A DNA stretch of 54,945 nt from a virus. Lineage: Duplodnaviria > Caudoviricetes. Made by a program: the position numbers and the translations under genes. The notes below the pieces were generated by a model. The model searched no databases. It saw only the letters and a list, made by a program, of their open reading frames with translations, and was not told the DNA's origin. Below are positions 327-47,894 of this stretch, piece by piece. The stretch covers positions 1 to 54,945 of the IMG/VR virus record IMGVR_UViG_3300047565_000115; one strand, given 5' to 3'. Each line of letters starts with the position of its first letter. Positions within the stretch are counted from its first letter, which is position 1.

Positions 327-365
327 AGATTTTTCATAGTGTATGGATTAAGGTTGAATTAGTGA

Positions 366-430
366 CACTACTTTTGACTTTTAGTTGGGAGTAGTGCAAG
401 TTGAGATAAGTCTCAAATAAAGTTCTTGAA
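366..430 (+). promoter_or_regulatory. Twin hairpin + boxA-like element, copy 1
   Basis: Hairpins 366-396 and 401-416 followed by ATAAAGTTCTTGAA. Confidence 0.45.
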
Positions 431-436
431 GGTATT

Positions 437-548
437 GGCTTAGTATGTGGCGGTTACCGTTAGACGCAATAATTCATACACAAACACACTAATGGCCTAG
501 AATTAAAAAAAGCGTGTGTGTACGTACTAAGTTATATTATTAATTCTA
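437..548 (+). ncRNA. Candidate structured RNA (multi-stem, possible pseudoknot)
   Basis: 12-bp stem 437-448/522-533, inner stems 449-461 and 475-481/514-520, crossing pairing 498-505/541-548. Confidence 0.35.
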
Positions 549-595
549 ATTCGGGCACACCATTTGCAAACGGTTAAGTTGTTCGAATACGATAA

Positions 596-643
596 CCCGA
601 TGAAAGTCGGGCAAATGGCAATATTGCCGATAAAAGTTCTTTA
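596..643 (+). promoter_or_regulatory. Twin hairpin + boxA-like element, copy 2
   Basis: GNRA hairpin CCCGAT-GAAA-GTCGGG, hairpin 616-629, then ATAAAAGTTCTTTA. Confidence 0.45.
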
Positions 644-661
644 TTGAGTGAATAAATGGTA

Positions 662-751
662 TTTTGTGTAGCTCATTGGCTAGAGCGTTAGCATTCCGAA
701 AGAGTTAGGCTCTTGTGCTAAAGGTAGGTTGTTCGACTCAACTCACAAAAT
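662..751 (+). tRNA. tRNA-shaped RNA with expanded 24-nt anticodon loop (nominal anticodon TCC/Gly)
   Basis: Acceptor TTTTGTG/CACAAAA, TA, D arm GCTC/GAGC with GG, anticodon stem TTAGC/GCTAA, V loop AGGTA, T arm GGTTG-TTCGACT-CAACT; no encoded CCA. Confidence 0.65.
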
Positions 752-822: not shown

Positions 823-851
823 AGAAGTGGGTCATGCTCACTTCTTATTTT
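823..851 (+). terminator. Intrinsic terminator-like hairpin
   Basis: AGAAGTGGG..CTCACTTCT followed by TATTTT. Confidence 0.5.
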
Positions 852-877
852 CAAAAATCAATTAAACAATTAATTAT

Positions 878-12640: not shown

Positions 12641-12797
12641 GTTGGTTTTATACGAAATAAAGCATGGTATCTTTCCGCAACCATTTGAAGTTTCTTTTGA
12701 AGAATATATTTTAATTGAGGAAGCGGTTAAAAAGAAGAAAAAGGATTTTGAATTGTTGTATAGTTATATGGATAAATGGAGTAAATTAATAGCATGA
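12624..12797 (+). CDS. Small hypothetical protein (57 aa, not in ORF track)
   Basis: MRKEIELVLY..; stop overlaps terL ATG (ATGA). Confidence 0.55.
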   Translation: MRKEIELVLYEIKHGIFPQPFEVSFEEYILIEEAVKKKKKDFELLYSYMDKWSKLIA

Positions 12798-15268
12798 CAG
12801 AAAAAACCAAAGAGCAAGTTATTAGGGAGGCTAAGATGGAGATTATCCGCTTGCAGTTAGCGAGGTTAAGTATGAAGCACTTTGTTCCACACGTTAACCA
12901 AAACTACAAAGCAGAATGGTTTCATACTTATATCATGTCGAGGTTGGATGCTTTTGAAAGGGGAGAGGTTAATAAGATAATGATTTCACTTCCACCCCAA
13001 ACAGGCAAGGAAATAGCTGATAATGAGCGAGTTATGACAAAAAATGGCTTCAAAAATCATGGCGACTTGGTTATTGGAGATTATGTTTTTGGATTAGATG
13101 GTAAACCTAAGAGGGTTTTAGCTTTATCTGAAAAAGTCCTTAGCACTCATAGGATTACCTTTAGCGACAACACGACTATTGATTGTCACGAGAACCATGA
13201 ATGGGTAGTCTACAAAAAGCGAGGCAATGAATTAGTAAAGTTAGAAACCAAACAAATGATTGATGACTTAACTTTTCAAAACGGAAATAAGAAAAGTTAT
13301 ATGTATTCACTTCCTTTCTTTGAGCCAATAGAAATGGAAGAATCTGATTTACATGTTCATCCTTATTTATTGGGTTTTTGGCTTGGTGATGGTGATAAAA
13401 AGGCAAGCAGGATATGTAAACCAAAAGCAAGTCTCGAAAAGATAATCAACAAGATTAGTTCTCTTGGTTACGAGTGCTCTACGCCATATAAAACAAGCAA
13501 CGATTATGACCTATGGTACACTAATGTTTATGGACTCGTAGGGCTTAATAAACAGATTGGAGTTTATGATAATAAACATATACCCGAACAGTACTTGTTG
13601 GCTTCGAAACAACAAAGGTTAGAACTACTTGCTGGCTTACTTGATAGTGATGGGTGTTGTTACGAGGATATTCGATATAAGAATAGCCAAAGAGTCGACT
13701 TCTCAAATACGAATAAAGGATTAGTTGAAGCAGTAAGATTTATTTGTAATTCCTTTGGGTGGAATACTTATTGGTCAGAAGTTCCACCTACACTAAGTAC
13801 AGGTGGAATACAAGGAAAGCAAATTAATTATAGAGTTCACTTTTCACCGACAGAACCAATACCAACTGTAAGACTAAATATAAGAGGGTGTGCAGTAAAA
13901 AGAAAACGCAAGATAGAAAAGATTGAACCACTTGGCGACAAAGCTACGATGGGTAGATGTATTCAAGTTGAAGATGGTATTTATTTGGTAGGAGAGACTT
14001 TTATTCCAACTCACAACTCCGAGTTAAGCACACGTACCTTTATTCCCTATGCAATAGGCAAGAACCCACGCAGAAAGATAGCAGTAGTAACTTATGGGCA
14101 ACAGTTGTCAAATTCTTTTAATAGAGATATAAAGGCTAATATGATGTCTAAGGAGTACAAGAACCTATTCCCTGATATAGTCTTAGGCACAAGGGCTGGC
14201 GATATGGCTATGTTAGAGAACTCAATGGAGCGTATGGACATAGGCAGGATAGTTGATGGCAAGTTAGTGCGTTCTGATGGTTTTATTAAGACTACTGCCG
14301 TTACTGCCCCCTTGACTGGCACGCCCGTTGATATGCTTGTGATTGACGACTTGTACAAGGACATGGAGGAAGCACAATCGGAAACGGTTAGACAAAGTAG
14401 ATGGGATTGGTGGTTTAGTGTTGCTAACTCACGACTTCATAACGATAGTCAAGTTTTGTTCTTGATGACAAGGTGGCACGAAGATGACCTTGCAGGAAAA
14501 TTATTAAAGACACAAGGTCACGAATGGGAGGTTATAAGGATGCCTTCCTTAAAAGATAACTTCCAAGCCGACTATGACCCACGACAAGAGGGTGAGGCGT
14601 TATACCCTTCGAGACATTCAAGAGAAAGAATGTTGCAGATTAAGAAAGACAACCCAACTACTTTTAATGCTCTTTACCAACAAGACCCTAAGCCACCCGA
14701 AAACTTGTTGGTGTTTGGAGATTGGGGGGAACTTAACGATTGGAAACCACAAGGTACTAAATTCTACGGATTGGATTTGGGATACACCAACGACCCAACT
14801 GCATTAACGGAGATATGGGTAGAGAAAAGGTCGGGACAAAAGCCGATGATATATTTAAGGGAACTAATATACAAAACAGGCTTAAACAATAGAACCCTGA
14901 TGGAACTATTTAAAGCCGTTGGGGTAAAAAAGAACGATATTATAGTTTGCGACACTAACGAGCCTAAGACCCTAAATGAGTTCCGAGAGAATGGCTACAC
15001 TATTCGCAAAGCTATAAAGGGCAAAGACAGTATAAAGGCTGGTATTAGGAAGCTAAAAGAGTTTGACGTAAGATTTAGTAAGGACAGTAGAAACCTTTTG
15101 TATGAGCGAAACAATTACGTGTACGTCATGAGTGGAGGCAGAATAACCGATGTACCTACTACTATCAATAATCATGGAATTGATAGCGTTAGAACGGCCG
15201 TCTACACTATGTTCTACACAGGAAAAAGAACTGGTAACTCAAAAAAAAGAGGGATAAGAAGTGCATAA
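12794..15268 (+). CDS. terL: Terminase large subunit with intein
   Basis: Walker A PPQTGK|S split by intein, Walker B LVIDD, MTRWHEDDLAG, ALYQQDP, nuclease GLDLGYTNDPTA and NHGIDSVR. Confidence 0.95.
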   Translation: MTEKTKEQVIREAKMEIIRLQLARLSMKHFVPHVNQNYKAEWFHTYIMSRLDAFERGEVNKIMISLPPQTGKEIADNERVMTKNGFKNHGDLVIGDYVFGLDGKPKRVLALSEKVLSTHRITFSDNTTIDCHENHEWVVYKKRGNELVKLETKQMIDDLTFQNGNKKSYMYSLPFFEPIEMEESDLHVHPYLLGFWLGDGDKKASRICKPKASLEKIINKISSLGYECSTPYKTSNDYDLWYTNVYGLVGLNKQIGVYDNKHIPEQYLLASKQQRLELLAGLLDSDGCCYEDIRYKNSQRVDFSNTNKGLVEAVRFICNSFGWNTYWSEVPPTLSTGGIQGKQINYRVHFSPTEPIPTVRLNIRGCAVKRKRKIEKIEPLGDKATMGRCIQVEDGIYLVGETFIPTHNSELSTRTFIPYAIGKNPRRKIAVVTYGQQLSNSFNRDIKANMMSKEYKNLFPDIVLGTRAGDMAMLENSMERMDIGRIVDGKLVRSDGFIKTTAVTAPLTGTPVDMLVIDDLYKDMEEAQSETVRQSRWDWWFSVANSRLHNDSQVLFLMTRWHEDDLAGKLLKTQGHEWEVIRMPSLKDNFQADYDPRQEGEALYPSRHSRERMLQIKKDNPTTFNALYQQDPKPPENLLVFGDWGELNDWKPQGTKFYGLDLGYTNDPTALTEIWVEKRSGQKPMIYLRELIYKTGLNNRTLMELFKAVGVKKNDIIVCDTNEPKTLNEFRENGYTIRKAIKGKDSIKAGIRKLKEFDVRFSKDSRNLLYERNNYVYVMSGGRITDVPTTINNHGIDSVRTAVYTMFYTGKRTGNSKKRGIRSA
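13010..14017 (+). mobile_element. Class 3 intein (336 aa) with LAGLIDADG homing endonuclease
   Basis: Begins EIADNERV, block B HENHEW, block F GRCIQV, block G IPTHN|S; PYLLGFWLGDG and LLAGLLDSDG. Confidence 0.9.
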
Positions 15269-44972: not shown

Positions 44973-45305
44973 ATGGCTTTTATTGGAGAAAAAGATGGTA
45001 AGTATAAAGTGTATTTATTATACAATAATGATGAACCAATTTATATAGGAATGACATCGAATATTTATAGCAGAATTGTTTGTCACAAGTGTACAAGGAA
45101 GTTTACTCATTACGCCATACTTGCCTCATTTAAAAATAAACAAGACGCTTTGTTTACAGAAAGGACGTTGATAAAGTTTATTTCATTTTGTGATTTAAGT
45201 TTTGAAAATGGCAAATATGTAAATTACAAACCACGAAAGGTTTCAATTGAAGAACATGGTATAGATTATATAAGGAAAATTAAAGAACAAAATGGCAAGA
45301 AGTGA
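44973..45305 (+). CDS. GIY-YIG nuclease-family protein
   Basis: KVYLL..IYIGMTSNIYSRIVCH..ALFTERTLI. Confidence 0.8.
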   Translation: MAFIGEKDGKYKVYLLYNNDEPIYIGMTSNIYSRIVCHKCTRKFTHYAILASFKNKQDALFTERTLIKFISFCDLSFENGKYVNYKPRKVSIEEHGIDYIRKIKEQNGKK

Positions 45306-46227
45306 ATTAAATACAGTATCTTATTTTCCTTTGTATTGCGATGAAGGTCAAAAAATGTTTTACATTGAGGAAACTTATGGTAATGATGGTTTTTCTACTT
45401 TTATAAAGATATTAAGAGAATTAGCAAAAACAGAATATCATTATTTGGACTTATCAAAACCAACGTCTTTAATGTTTCTATCTGCTAAATGTAAAGTAGG
45501 TAAAGACTTGCTAAATGCTATAATTACAGACCTTGTAGAACTTGGTAAATTCGATAAAGAATTATGGGAATCAGCAAAAATAATCTGGTGTCAAGACTTT
45601 ATAAATAGTATTCAAGATGCCTATAAAAAGAGAAATAACAACTGTATAAACAGAAGTTCATTACTTGAACTTTTATACTCAAAAAGTATACTTATTCGAC
45701 CAAAAAGTAACCCTAAACAATCAAAAGTTATAAGTGAAGGTGTCGATAATCCACAAATAAAAGAAGAGTATATAAAAGAAGAAGAAAACAAAGAATATAT
45801 TTTTGAATCTCTATGGAAAGATTACCCAAATAAAGACAATAAGAAAAAAGCTAAAGAAAAGTTTTTAAAGTTAGATGATAAAGACATTGAATTAGTTAAA
45901 ATACATTTGCCAATGTTTTCTATTACTAAAAAGTTTGCAACTTATAATCATCCTCAACTTGTGGTTTATTTAAATCAAGAAAGGTATAAAGATGAAGTTA
46001 ATAGTGGAGGTATTCAATCCGAAAGAAAACTATTAAGGCTTCCGCAAGAGTATGAAAACTATATGGGTATGGAACTTGGATTATTGTTATCAAGAATAAA
46101 GATACAAAGAGGGATTGAGTATATGCCTGATATAACAAAAGAGCAATACAACTCTTTACCGAGAGATTCTTTCAATATGTACGATTCATTAATAAAAAGC
46201 AACAACTGTAAAATAATAGAAGAGTAA
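45292..46227 (+). CDS. Replication initiator (DUF4373/Lin1244-like N-terminus)
   Basis: YFPL..IEETYGNDGF..ILREL; FESLWKDYPNKDNKKKA..YLNQERYKDE C-terminal domain. Confidence 0.8.
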   Translation: MARSELNTVSYFPLYCDEGQKMFYIEETYGNDGFSTFIKILRELAKTEYHYLDLSKPTSLMFLSAKCKVGKDLLNAIITDLVELGKFDKELWESAKIIWCQDFINSIQDAYKKRNNNCINRSSLLELLYSKSILIRPKSNPKQSKVISEGVDNPQIKEEYIKEEENKEYIFESLWKDYPNKDNKKKAKEKFLKLDDKDIELVKIHLPMFSITKKFATYNHPQLVVYLNQERYKDEVNSGGIQSERKLLRLPQEYENYMGMELGLLLSRIKIQRGIEYMPDITKEQYNSLPRDSFNMYDSLIKSNNCKIIEE

Positions 46228-47894
46228 TGGTCACGATAAACGAAAGAGTGGTATATGAAAGGGGAGAAGAACCTAAATTGTCGTACCATGAAATTGACGA
46301 TGTTTTAAACGGTATTAAAAACCCAAAGGAAAAAGATTTAATTTTAAAAATACGTTCTTTAGAGTCAAAATCAGAACGTGACGAGTTGAAAAAAAATCTT
46401 AGGGGTATAATGTTTTCGGGTGTTTTTTGGGGAAGAAATGACGCTGATTGTGTAGAACATAGTGGATTTATTTGTTTAGACTTTGACAAGTTAGGAGAGA
46501 AATTAGAAACCTATAAAGATAAGATAAAAACTTCTGAATATACTTATTCTGTATTTGATAGCCCAAGTGGAAATGGATTAAAAATAATTGTTAAGATTCC
46601 CCCTTCGTTAGATGAACATACTGATTATTTTTATGGGTTAGAGGATTATTATGATTCAGAGTTTTTTGATAAAACTTCAAGAAATTTATCAAGAATCTGC
46701 TTTATATCATACGACCCAAACATTTACATAAACAAAGATTCTAAGGTTTTTGATAGAAAAAGAAAACAGAAGGAGGTTATTTATACTACAAATGAAACTA
46801 TAAATAAACTTTTAAAATGGTGGAACGAGAAATATGGTTTAGTAAGTGGTAATAGAAATAATAATTGTTTTGTTTTAGCAAGTGCATTTAATCGTTACGG
46901 CATAGTTAAAGAACTTGCTATGGATACGATGCTAAAGTTTGAACAAAAAGACTTTAGAGCGTATGAGATAAAGGGGACAGTAAATAGTGCATACCAAAAG
47001 AAAGATTTATTTGGAACGCAACACTTTAGCAATTTAAACGAAAACGATGCTATTGATGTAAGTTTTATACTTACTGGTCAAAGAATGGATATGTCAGATA
47101 TGTTTGCAAAGACATTTATTGATATTGACAAACCAATAGCACAGCCACCAGTTTTAGTAAGTATAGGTAGTCACTTTTATAAAGGTAACTCATTTCCTAC
47201 AAGAATGGCAACAGAGGGTAACATATCAGTAATTATGGGCGAATCAAAGTCAAAGAAAACATTTTTTAAGTCTTTAGTTACTGCATCGTATATCGGTGGT
47301 GACACTTACAAGTATTCAGGTGATATGGTAGGTCACAGAGAGAATGACAAGTACGTGATTGACATAGACACGGAACAATCTGAATTTGATGCACAGAGGG
47401 TATTTAAAAGAGTTCAAGATTTAGTAGGTGCAAGCGTTAGCGATTTTTATAAACCATTTTCAATGCGTGGTTTTGATGGGCATGAAATAATAATGTTTAT
47501 TGACTATCTACTTTATGAAAGTGAATTTAAGAATAATGTTGGGTGGTTGTCAATAGATGGTATAGCAGATTTAATTGACGATGCTAACGATATTAAACAA
47601 AGTAAGCAAGTGGTTACCAAAGTTATGAAATGGACAAAAGAGCAAAAGTGTCACGTCAATACAATTATTCATACAAATGCAGGTTCTGAAAAGCCGACTG
47701 GCCATTTAGGTAGTTTTTTATTAAAAAAGGCTGAAACAATATGCAGTCTTAAAAAAGACGATGAAATGACAATAGCGTCTTTCCCTTACACAAGAGGGCA
47801 TTCTATAAAGTCATTCCCTTATTATGTTGATAATGATTGGATGCCAGTAGTAGTTGGAAGTAAAAAAGACAGTAACAATAAAATAAATTTTTAA
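46227..47894 (+). CDS. Primase-helicase fusion (BT4734/VirE-N + PriCT + AAA)
   Basis: HSGFICLDFD, SPSGNGLK, SRICFISYDP; GNRNN; GESKSKKT, IDTEQ, IDGIADL, GHLGS. Confidence 0.85.
   Translation: MVTINERVVYERGEEPKLSYHEIDDVLNGIKNPKEKDLILKIRSLESKSERDELKKNLRGIMFSGVFWGRNDADCVEHSGFICLDFDKLGEKLETYKDKIKTSEYTYSVFDSPSGNGLKIIVKIPPSLDEHTDYFYGLEDYYDSEFFDKTSRNLSRICFISYDPNIYINKDSKVFDRKRKQKEVIYTTNETINKLLKWWNEKYGLVSGNRNNNCFVLASAFNRYGIVKELAMDTMLKFEQKDFRAYEIKGTVNSAYQKKDLFGTQHFSNLNENDAIDVSFILTGQRMDMSDMFAKTFIDIDKPIAQPPVLVSIGSHFYKGNSFPTRMATEGNISVIMGESKSKKTFFKSLVTASYIGGDTYKYSGDMVGHRENDKYVIDIDTEQSEFDAQRVFKRVQDLVGASVSDFYKPFSMRGFDGHEIIMFIDYLLYESEFKNNVGWLSIDGIADLIDDANDIKQSKQVVTKVMKWTKEQKCHVNTIIHTNAGSEKPTGHLGSFLLKKAETICSLKKDDEMTIASFPYTRGHSIKSFPYYVDNDWMPVVVGSKKDSNNKINF

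Follow-up and report, generated by a model that had tools for sequence, protein, structure and literature searches.

Can a phage-encoded transfer RNA (tRNA) gene whose anticodon loop is interrupted by a hairpin still give rise to a decoding tRNA, and by what route would the hairpin be lost? The question is raised by the IMG/VR virus record IMGVR_UViG_3300047565_000115, a stretch of 54,945 base pairs (bp) that is referred to in its entirety as the window, and which carries at positions 662-751 a tRNA-shaped gene with an anticodon loop of 24 nucleotides (nt). Protein-dependent tRNA splicing is held to be absent from bacteria and their viruses. The reading that is tentatively favoured here, at somewhat under an even chance and on the strength of sequence comparisons, is that the gene may encode a decoding pre-tRNA of the Gly(UCC) type with a protein-spliced hairpin mini-intron. 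The parts of the gene are as follows.

662-751, plus strand: tRNA-shaped gene of 90 nt including the discriminator T751 (Rfam model RF00005; ARAGORN, as 662-752; cloverleaf of minimum free energy, MFE)
662-668/744-750, plus strand: acceptor stem of seven Watson-Crick pairs, starting with U1-A72, U2-A71 and U3-A70
669, plus strand: U8 (sequence)
671-686, plus strand: D arm with a 4-bp stem and an 8-nt loop, GG at 678-679 (sequence)
687, plus strand: G26 (sequence)
688-721, plus strand: anticodon arm, a 5-bp stem (688-692/717-721) around a 24-nt loop (693-716) (Rfam alignment, MFE)
695-697, plus strand: UCC triplet at tRNA positions 34-36, preceded by U33 (694) and followed by G37 (698) (sequence, Rfam register)
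700-716, plus strand: proposed insert, a hairpin followed by two 3' bases (715-716), removal of which leaves a 7-nt loop (693-699)
722-726, plus strand: variable loop of 5 nt (sequence)
727-743, plus strand: T arm with a 5-bp stem, first pair G.U, and the loop TTCGACT (Rfam alignment, MFE, ARAGORN)

The bases that make the tertiary contacts of a tRNA are present, namely U8, A14, G18-G19, A21, G26, the 5-nt variable loop and the T-loop TTCGA. CCA is not encoded and the discriminator is T751 (U73). RF00005 matches the gene from end to end (model positions 1-71) at 45.5 bits against a gathering score of 29, with an E value of 1.6e-8 in a search of 601 bases, and its alignment places the surplus, 21 extra letters, in the anticodon loop. 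The MFE fold is a cloverleaf at -23.2 kcal/mol, with a z-score of only -1.34 for the whole RNA. Infernal scans of the entire window with the default or the 'evalue' filters report no tRNA, the gene being lost to the speed filters, and ARAGORN calls a class II tRNA-Ser(cga) by default and an Arg(ccg) with a 15-nt intron when introns are allowed. An earlier sequence-only reading of the locus had described a 7-bp acceptor stem, U8, a D arm with GG, a 5-nt variable loop and a TTCGACT loop, all of which lie exactly where it had placed them, and its description of a 24-nt anticodon loop with a sub-hairpin at 700-714 agrees with the sequence, the Rfam alignment and the MFE fold.

The hairpin has a 6-bp stem (700-705/709-714) capped by a UAG loop. 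As transcribed, the gene has no ordinary 7-nt anticodon loop; one is obtained only by removing 17 nt, and taking away the hairpin with the two bases that follow it leaves the loop AUUCCGA, with U33, the triplet UCC and G37. The equal-sized removal of 699-715 is an alternative, and the junction is therefore uncertain by one base (after G698 or after A699). With either deletion a 7-nt loop remains, and the earlier proposal that a 17-nt removal would yield a TCC anticodon together with U73 is thereby confirmed. In the MFE fold the anticodon stem is lengthened by the pairs 693:716 and 694:715, the bases UCCGA (695-699) form a 5-nt bulge, and the hairpin stacks above. The hairpin occurs once in the window, where two matches with up to three mismatches were found against 2.06 expected, and potential antisense targets in the window are at chance level (three complementary 9-mers and one 10-mer, with shuffle means of 4.44 and 0.92). 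By inspection, the insert is not a kink-turn and lacks a hammerhead core, and both candidates were rejected.

A second family of genes with the same architecture comes from Mu-like prophages of Flavobacterium. A scan of 185,579 species genomes with a 19-letter D-arm pattern returned five matches, comprising one normal tRNA-Val, one tRNA-like remnant not called by ARAGORN, two chance matches and one informative match on a 37-kilobase (kb) contig of a Flavobacterium metagenome-assembled genome (MAG; G002). This contig codes for a MuB-like ATPase, DUF3164, Mu F and a Mu-type portal, which marks it as a Mu-like transposable phage. A BLAST search over 401 Flavobacterium genomes gave one full-length homologue of the G002 gene (82% over 121 nt), in a second genome (G744).

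L011:7393-7497 (G002:C41): sister gene of 105 nt, RF00005 56.1 bits, missed by ARAGORN
L065:1014-1119 (G744:C76), minus strand: sister gene in Mu-like surroundings, missed by ARAGORN

The window gene and the G002 gene share 22 consecutive identical letters over the D arm (671-686 with 669-670 and 687-689), and the window gene has in common with the sister genes the G26-UU sequence, an AGGU variable loop, the U1-A72 pair and the lack of CCA. The sister genes differ from it in the sequences of the acceptor, anticodon and T stems, and the phages also differ in type, the sisters residing in Mu-like transposable phages and the window being a siphophage with ERF, RusA and a primase. The G002 gene has a 39-nt anticodon loop, made up of UUCUGG, a hairpin whose 6-bp core stem is capped by a large apical loop, and UCG; its insert is 32 nt long, and its triplet is CUG where the window gene has UCC. 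In both families the hairpin starts directly after nucleotide 37 or one base later, and its 3' strand continues into the 3' strand of the anticodon stem, so that the two helices can stack with the anticodon held in a bulge of the 5' strand. Both also have nine unpaired loop bases outside the hairpin, 7 + 2 in the window and 6 + 3 in L011, and therefore removal of the hairpin and the next two bases leaves exactly seven in each family (UUCUGGG in G002). The triplets moreover fit the discriminators: UCC is accompanied by U73 in the window and, in G002 only, CUG by U1-A72 and G73. Bacterial tRNA-Gly typically has U73, and the combination of CUG, U1-A72 and G73 is the pattern of tRNA-Gln.

The two sister genes agree at 49 of 58 body positions and at 30 of 39 loop letters, with loops of equal length (39). 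Pairing is kept where they differ, acceptor pair 4 changing from UA to CG and T-stem pairs 1-3 from GU/CG/GC to AU/UA/CG. The compensating stem changes and the equal loop length show selection for the tRNA fold and for retention of the insert.

Closer relatives were sought by aligning contigs from four public DNA runs to positions 1-2500 of the window. The only direct relative of the gene came from run X5, which belongs to a different study: a contig piece covers 661-729, the 5' two-thirds of the gene with the whole hairpin, with four changes and no gaps, one of the changes (G691T) falling in the anticodon stem. The 148 letters upstream of this piece do not fit the window, though they still hold the motif ATTGAGTGAAT (window 643-653). 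The tRNA with its insert is thus, as far as these alignments indicate, better conserved than its surroundings. Gap-free retention of the insert in X5 beside a diverged flank, together with the compensating stem changes of the sister family, upholds the sequence-only reading in its view that random decay does not explain the locus.

643-751, plus strand: swappable cassette of a 19-nt spacer and the tRNA-like gene, the 109 letters of which are replaced by about 99 in a minor contig of run X3

In X3, possibly the sample from which the record came, two contigs share 603-642 and 752-781; the major one (depth 13.2) has the form of the window and the minor one (depth 5.09) differs from it by 10 nt in length, not 17. 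X7 tracks the upstream region as far as 634 and then diverges. Since X3, X5 and X7 break differently around 643-751, this segment behaves as an exchangeable cassette, and its right edge is the last base of the tRNA. A 30-letter end before 770 in X5 weakly suggests that in a further form of the cassette there may be a tRNA of identical T stem and other acceptor stem, again with a U discriminator.

Under the favoured reading, a Gly(UCC) tRNA reading GGA and GGG would carry a 17-nt mini-intron, the 6-bp hairpin plus two bases, just after its anticodon. The transcript would be trimmed by ribonuclease (RNase) P and RNase Z and CCA would then be added. Stacking of the anticodon stem and the hairpin would give a helix of about 13 bp from which the anticodon bulges on the 5' side; a host endonuclease would cut at the base of the hairpin, and a host ligase such as RtcB would rejoin the halves. 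The mature tRNA would supply a codon heavily used by the phage; GGA accounts for 323 of 923 Gly codons, at 21.8 per 1000 codons overall and 26.5 per 1000 in structural genes. The identity features of bacterial tRNA-Gly are C35, C36, U73, G1-C72, C2-G71 and G3-C70, the first three of which are found here as C696, C697 and T751. The intron reading is preferred because seven bases are left in two families and because triplet and discriminator match. The sequence-only reading had instead interpreted the gene as a mimic, either a decoy or an RNase P/Z signal; its rejection of decay stands, whereas on the nature of the RNA these same two results, a canonical 7-nt loop twice recovered by removing the hairpin and two bases and a triplet that fits its discriminator, lean towards an insert that is removed.

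A more general form of the proposal is possible, if doubtful: Flavobacterium-type bacteria or their phages would have a protein-based tRNA splicing unrelated to the archaeal/eukaryotic endonuclease, in which a host endonuclease excises the hairpin after position 37 with a 2-nt 3' overhang and RtcB seals the ends. Double-strand-specific RNases leave ends of this geometry. In a bolder version the cutter would be a defence anticodon nuclease, and the tRNA would mature only when the host tries to halt translation.

A number of results weigh against removal of the insert. The sequence-only reading had placed it at the canonical 37/38 site of archaeal and eukaryotic introns, and while this position holds, the defining bulge-helix-bulge motif and its endonuclease are both missing. 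Instead of two 3-nt bulges on opposite strands of a 4-bp helix, the window gene folds with a single 5-nt bulge on the 5' strand, an unbulged 3' strand and a 6-bp helix with a 3-nt loop. The splicing endonuclease family (tRNA_int_endo, PF01974) has no match in the window or in any of three genomes carrying such genes; the search had its positive control in four archaea only, and the carriers represent the presumed host genus. An RtcB- or Rnl-type ligase is likewise absent from the window, where Pfam searches of 40 open reading frames (ORFs) found none in a record that is 52% complete. RtcB is coded in all three carrier genomes, in two copies in two of them, so that the likely host genus has a ligase at its disposal. 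No ribozyme was detected either, Rfam giving no match besides tRNA at E values up to 10 in the region 300-900, and at 17 nt the insert is far from the core of at least about 200 nt of a group I intron. The substrates of bacterial RNase III are longer than a 6-bp stem.

The hairpin itself is not thermodynamically exceptional and not beyond chance, which is a further point on the same side. Alone it folds at -4.7 kcal/mol, a value that 19 of 200 shuffled versions of the 24-nt loop also reach; the anticodon arm alone reaches -9.9 kcal/mol, with 8 of 200 shuffles as good. No insert-free homologue was found in the collections searched, and the X5 relative keeps the insert. In the G744 sister gene a U follows CUG, so that no such splice gives a purine 37, the discriminator is U rather than G, and the hairpin has uncompensated changes at both ends of its stem. 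The identity of the tRNA poses difficulties of its own. The sequence-only reading had already remarked that the acceptor pairs of tRNA-Gly are missing, and it was right, the stem having U-A at all three of the places where G1-C72, C2-G71 and G3-C70 are expected. A G37 beside C36 is unusual. Other 17-nt deletions would give UCU, UUU or CUU, which leaves the splice site ambiguous, and the identity of the tRNA therefore rests on the position of the cut.

How does this compare with the interrupted tRNA genes that are already known? In the available text of Devoto et al. (2019, PMC6784885), the tRNA genes of Lak megaphages are said to contain unexplained 'enigmatic' introns; these phages are about 540 kb in size with up to 35 tRNAs, and at least one insert is large enough to resemble a tRNA. 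The accessible portion of a later Lak paper has a pertinent methods remark (PMC8346664). The literature beyond the Lak phages yielded, in the portions available, no mechanism and no further report, the word 'intron' being absent from the accessible text of PMC7162821. Compared by description only and on the available text, the window resembles the Lak phages in being a Bacteroidota phage with a tRNA too long for bacterial-mode predictors, and an insert in the anticodon loop whose sequence is conserved among relatives. Its gene too is recognisable only if such an insert is allowed, as a 15-nt intron by ARAGORN or as 21 extra letters by Infernal. It differs in being a 55-kb siphophage record with one tRNA gene and a bare hairpin of 15-17 nt.

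The archaeal and eukaryotic introns, which are handled by EndA/Sen and RtcB, are similar in lying after nucleotide 37, in being short and too small to self-splice, and in that RtcB is present in the presumed host genus; they differ in the two 3-nt bulges and 4-bp helix that are absent here and in the lack of EndA from the window and the three carriers. Bacterial group I introns in tRNA anticodon loops, such as that of cyanobacterial tRNA-Leu(UAA), are self-splicing and about 200-300 nt long. They too interrupt a tRNA of the bacterial world in the anticodon loop, whereas the insert in the window has 17 nt and no ribozyme match. What is new here is the very small size of the insert, its presence in a small phage with a single tRNA gene and no ligase found in the record, its location in an exchangeable cassette, and the sister genes in Mu-like prophages of the culturable genus Flavobacterium. 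The Lak puzzle, posed by uncultured 540-kb phages, is thereby reduced to a hairpin of 15-17 nt in a small phage, and as Flavobacterium is easily grown and genetically tractable, the question of splicing becomes testable. Routine annotation mis-calls insert-bearing tRNAs (Ser or Arg by ARAGORN) or misses them (default Infernal), and they are probably under-counted.

The foremost alternative, itself rather doubtful, is that the gene specifies a non-decoding tRNA mimic, an RNA that is processed and stable and keeps its hairpin, the arm barring it from the ribosome and the bulged anticodon binding or distracting a tRNA-specific factor. The target could be a host defence anticodon nuclease, a modification enzyme or a synthetase. 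This would account for an intact tRNA body whose loop is unable to decode as it stands, for the insert length kept in X5 and between G002 and G744, and for the failure to find splicing machinery in the window or the carriers, RtcB in the latter aside. Swapping of the 643-751 cassette among close phages would also be typical of accessory or counter-defence loci. Engineered tRNA scaffolds, in which a foreign hairpin replaces the anticodon loop, are processed and accumulate in bacteria, and for this reason a mimic RNA would be expected to be stable. The same combination of a processable body with an anticodon region that is non-decoding as transcribed is known from T4 rnaC/rnaD, mascRNA and tRNA scaffolds; the window loop is unlike these in keeping U33, a sensible triplet, a purine at 37 and an insert that can be removed to leave seven bases. 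A decoy needs no seven-base remainder, yet one is seen in two families. A 5-nt bulge may escape a nuclease that reads a 7-nt loop, none of the results identifies a partner for the mimic, and no defence or counter-defence genes were found beside the gene. The uncompensated stem-edge changes between G002 and G744 look more like a constraint on sequence than one purely on structure, a point in favour of the mimic. Were the RNA to remain unspliced, it would represent a conserved natural 'tRNA scaffold' of relevance to the conflict between phage and host over tRNA.

It is unlikely that the tRNA shape serves only as punctuation, a cleavage signal through which RNase P and RNase Z would define the 3' end of an upstream mRNA or structured RNA (54-642), with no constraint on the anticodon arm. 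Two further features bear on this proposal.

327-642, plus strand: upstream non-coding, hairpin-rich region, its conservation in X5 and X7 being independent of the tRNA cassette
823-852, plus strand: intrinsic-terminator-like hairpin of 10 pairs with a T-rich tail, 72 nt 3' of the tRNA-like gene

The gene does end a non-coding, hairpin-rich stretch of 550 nt, with no predicted terminator between 327 and 823 and one following at 823-845, the terminator-like hairpin at 823-852 closing the non-coding stretch 327-877. Terminator prediction found this one against a shuffle mean of 0.7. Examples of tRNA-like 3'-end signals are mascRNA and, in phage T4, the stable RNAs of the tRNA cluster. The acceptor/T domain is most of what RNase P and RNase Z require, and here the D arm, the anticodon stem and the U33-NNN-R37 arrangement are kept as well. 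The upstream region and the tRNA also occur apart, the X7 piece covering 374-634 with nine changes and X5 having the tRNA with an unlike upstream flank; a separate X5 piece covers 342-423 with two changes. In the Mu-like prophages the gene directly follows a protein gene and has no structured RNA upstream. Within the upstream region, 551-600 and 437-548 fold no better than shuffles (64 and 38 of 200 as good, respectively).

Less probable again, and on balance improbable, is a pseudo-tRNA, a gene that worked until a small palindromic insertion disabled it and that the phage has yet to lose. The gene is present in a single copy, its hairpin lies within the chance range of shuffles, its acceptor stem is unusually A/U-rich, the locus is replaceable as in the minor form of X3, and no direct homologue emerged from any collection searched. 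Among viral contigs there were no matches to DNA patterns from the tRNA, the hairpin, the T arm or the upstream region, nor among metagenome contigs to the DNA patterns, nor among genome contigs in one pattern scan. A 17-mer pattern in viral contigs had three matches, all in coding DNA with no tRNA nearby, and was set aside. The protein route via the ORF at 2226-2987 gave 232 pattern matches and no relatives in metagenome contigs; in viral contigs one protein route led to a single distant phage (L002), which lacks the tRNA, and a second led to none. The neighbouring 90-amino-acid protein matched only itself in the protein collection. BLAST of the tRNA gave only D-arm fragments with E values of 3-10 against 50,697 phage records, 22 partial matches of at most 30 nt against 401 Flavobacteriaceae genomes (five of nine loci given to ARAGORN being tRNA-Ala(GGC)), and one matching genome among the 401 Flavobacterium genomes, in the D arm of G002 only. 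Against loss of function speak the integrity of every stem, the far better conservation of the tRNA part than of the flank in X5, and a sister family that retains the insert while its stem changes compensate. Phage genomes, moreover, quickly purge dead DNA.

That the gene is an ordinary decoding tRNA in no need of splicing, be it a class II Ser(CGA) whose variable arm is long or an Arg(CCG) whose stem is shifted, is very improbable in spite of the two ARAGORN calls, as the Ser(CGA) fold reaches only -12.9 kcal/mol against -23.2 kcal/mol for the cloverleaf with the hairpin and has an A.A mismatch and two G.U pairs in its anticodon stem, short of the stable anticodon stem and long variable-arm hairpin of a class II tRNA-Ser, the Arg register requires that two bases separate the D stem from the anticodon stem and that the variable loop be 6 nt long, and it still calls for an intron, its codon CGG makes up 4 of the 14,824 codons of the phage, and the Rfam model sets the extra bases in the anticodon loop.

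The record that carries the gene is 52% complete according to CheckV, has a G+C content of about 30-40% and has every long ORF on the plus strand. Its large terminase is 39% identical to the terminases of Porphyromonas and Bacteroides siphophages, and Pfam further identifies a primase-type protein, ERF, RusA, a small GIY-YIG protein, a lysozyme and a RepL-like protein. Near-identical DNA is present in freshwater metagenome runs. We read the record as that of a tailed phage infecting a freshwater member of the Bacteroidota. The terminase ORF (12794-15268) encodes 824 amino acids, and the alignments to phage terminases span only residues 6-639 or 16-695. The GIY-YIG-domain protein of 110 amino acids (44973-45305) is homing-endonuclease-like and is encoded immediately upstream of the replication genes. 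By ARAGORN, 662-751 is the sole tRNA-type gene in the window apart from a tRNA-Asn(att) at 46552-46684 that is called with a 38-nt intron when the threshold is lowered and introns are permitted; this call lies inside the primase-like ORF at 46227-47894 and is probably a false positive.

How widespread are genes of this kind? A census of 401 Flavobacteriaceae genomes was made with a pattern of D arm and T loop separated by 40-70 letters, which matched in 57 of them, and the matched strings were read by eye. Only those of G002 and G187 are tRNA-model genes with enlarged anticodon loops, as confirmed with RF00005; by the same reading, and leaving aside four genomes described below, the other matches look like fragments or like ordinary tRNAs that happen to have a GTTCRA behind them. 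Because the pattern sees only GCTC/GAGC D stems the census undercounts. Candidate genes with insertions in the anticodon loop are, on this sequence census, rare but recurrent.

The G187 gene (L042:1486-1575, minus strand, on G187:C1), a singleton unrelated to that of G002, is tRNA-Ala-like with G3.U70, A73 and an encoded CCA, and scores 48.6 bits with RF00005. Its anticodon loop is replaced by 26 nt that include a UUCG-capped hairpin. It is located about 530 nt from a transfer-messenger RNA (tmRNA) gene and adjoins tRNA-Met and tRNA-Tyr, and no relatives of it were found in 151 genomes of the family. Four further genomes (G167, G027, G258 and G384) have tRNA-like sequences in which a normal-looking anticodon arm is followed by a very long insert with the motifs ACTTT(T)CGC and AAAGTTCC; these look like a different family of tRNA-like genes with long variable arms. 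Lastly, the Flavobacterium MAG that has the first sister gene also contains a tight cluster of tRNAs (L013, G002:C14:34000-38500) comprising Leu-tag, Pro-tgg, His-gtg and Asp-gtc, which score 33-52 bits with RF00005, and this cluster may be derived from a phage.

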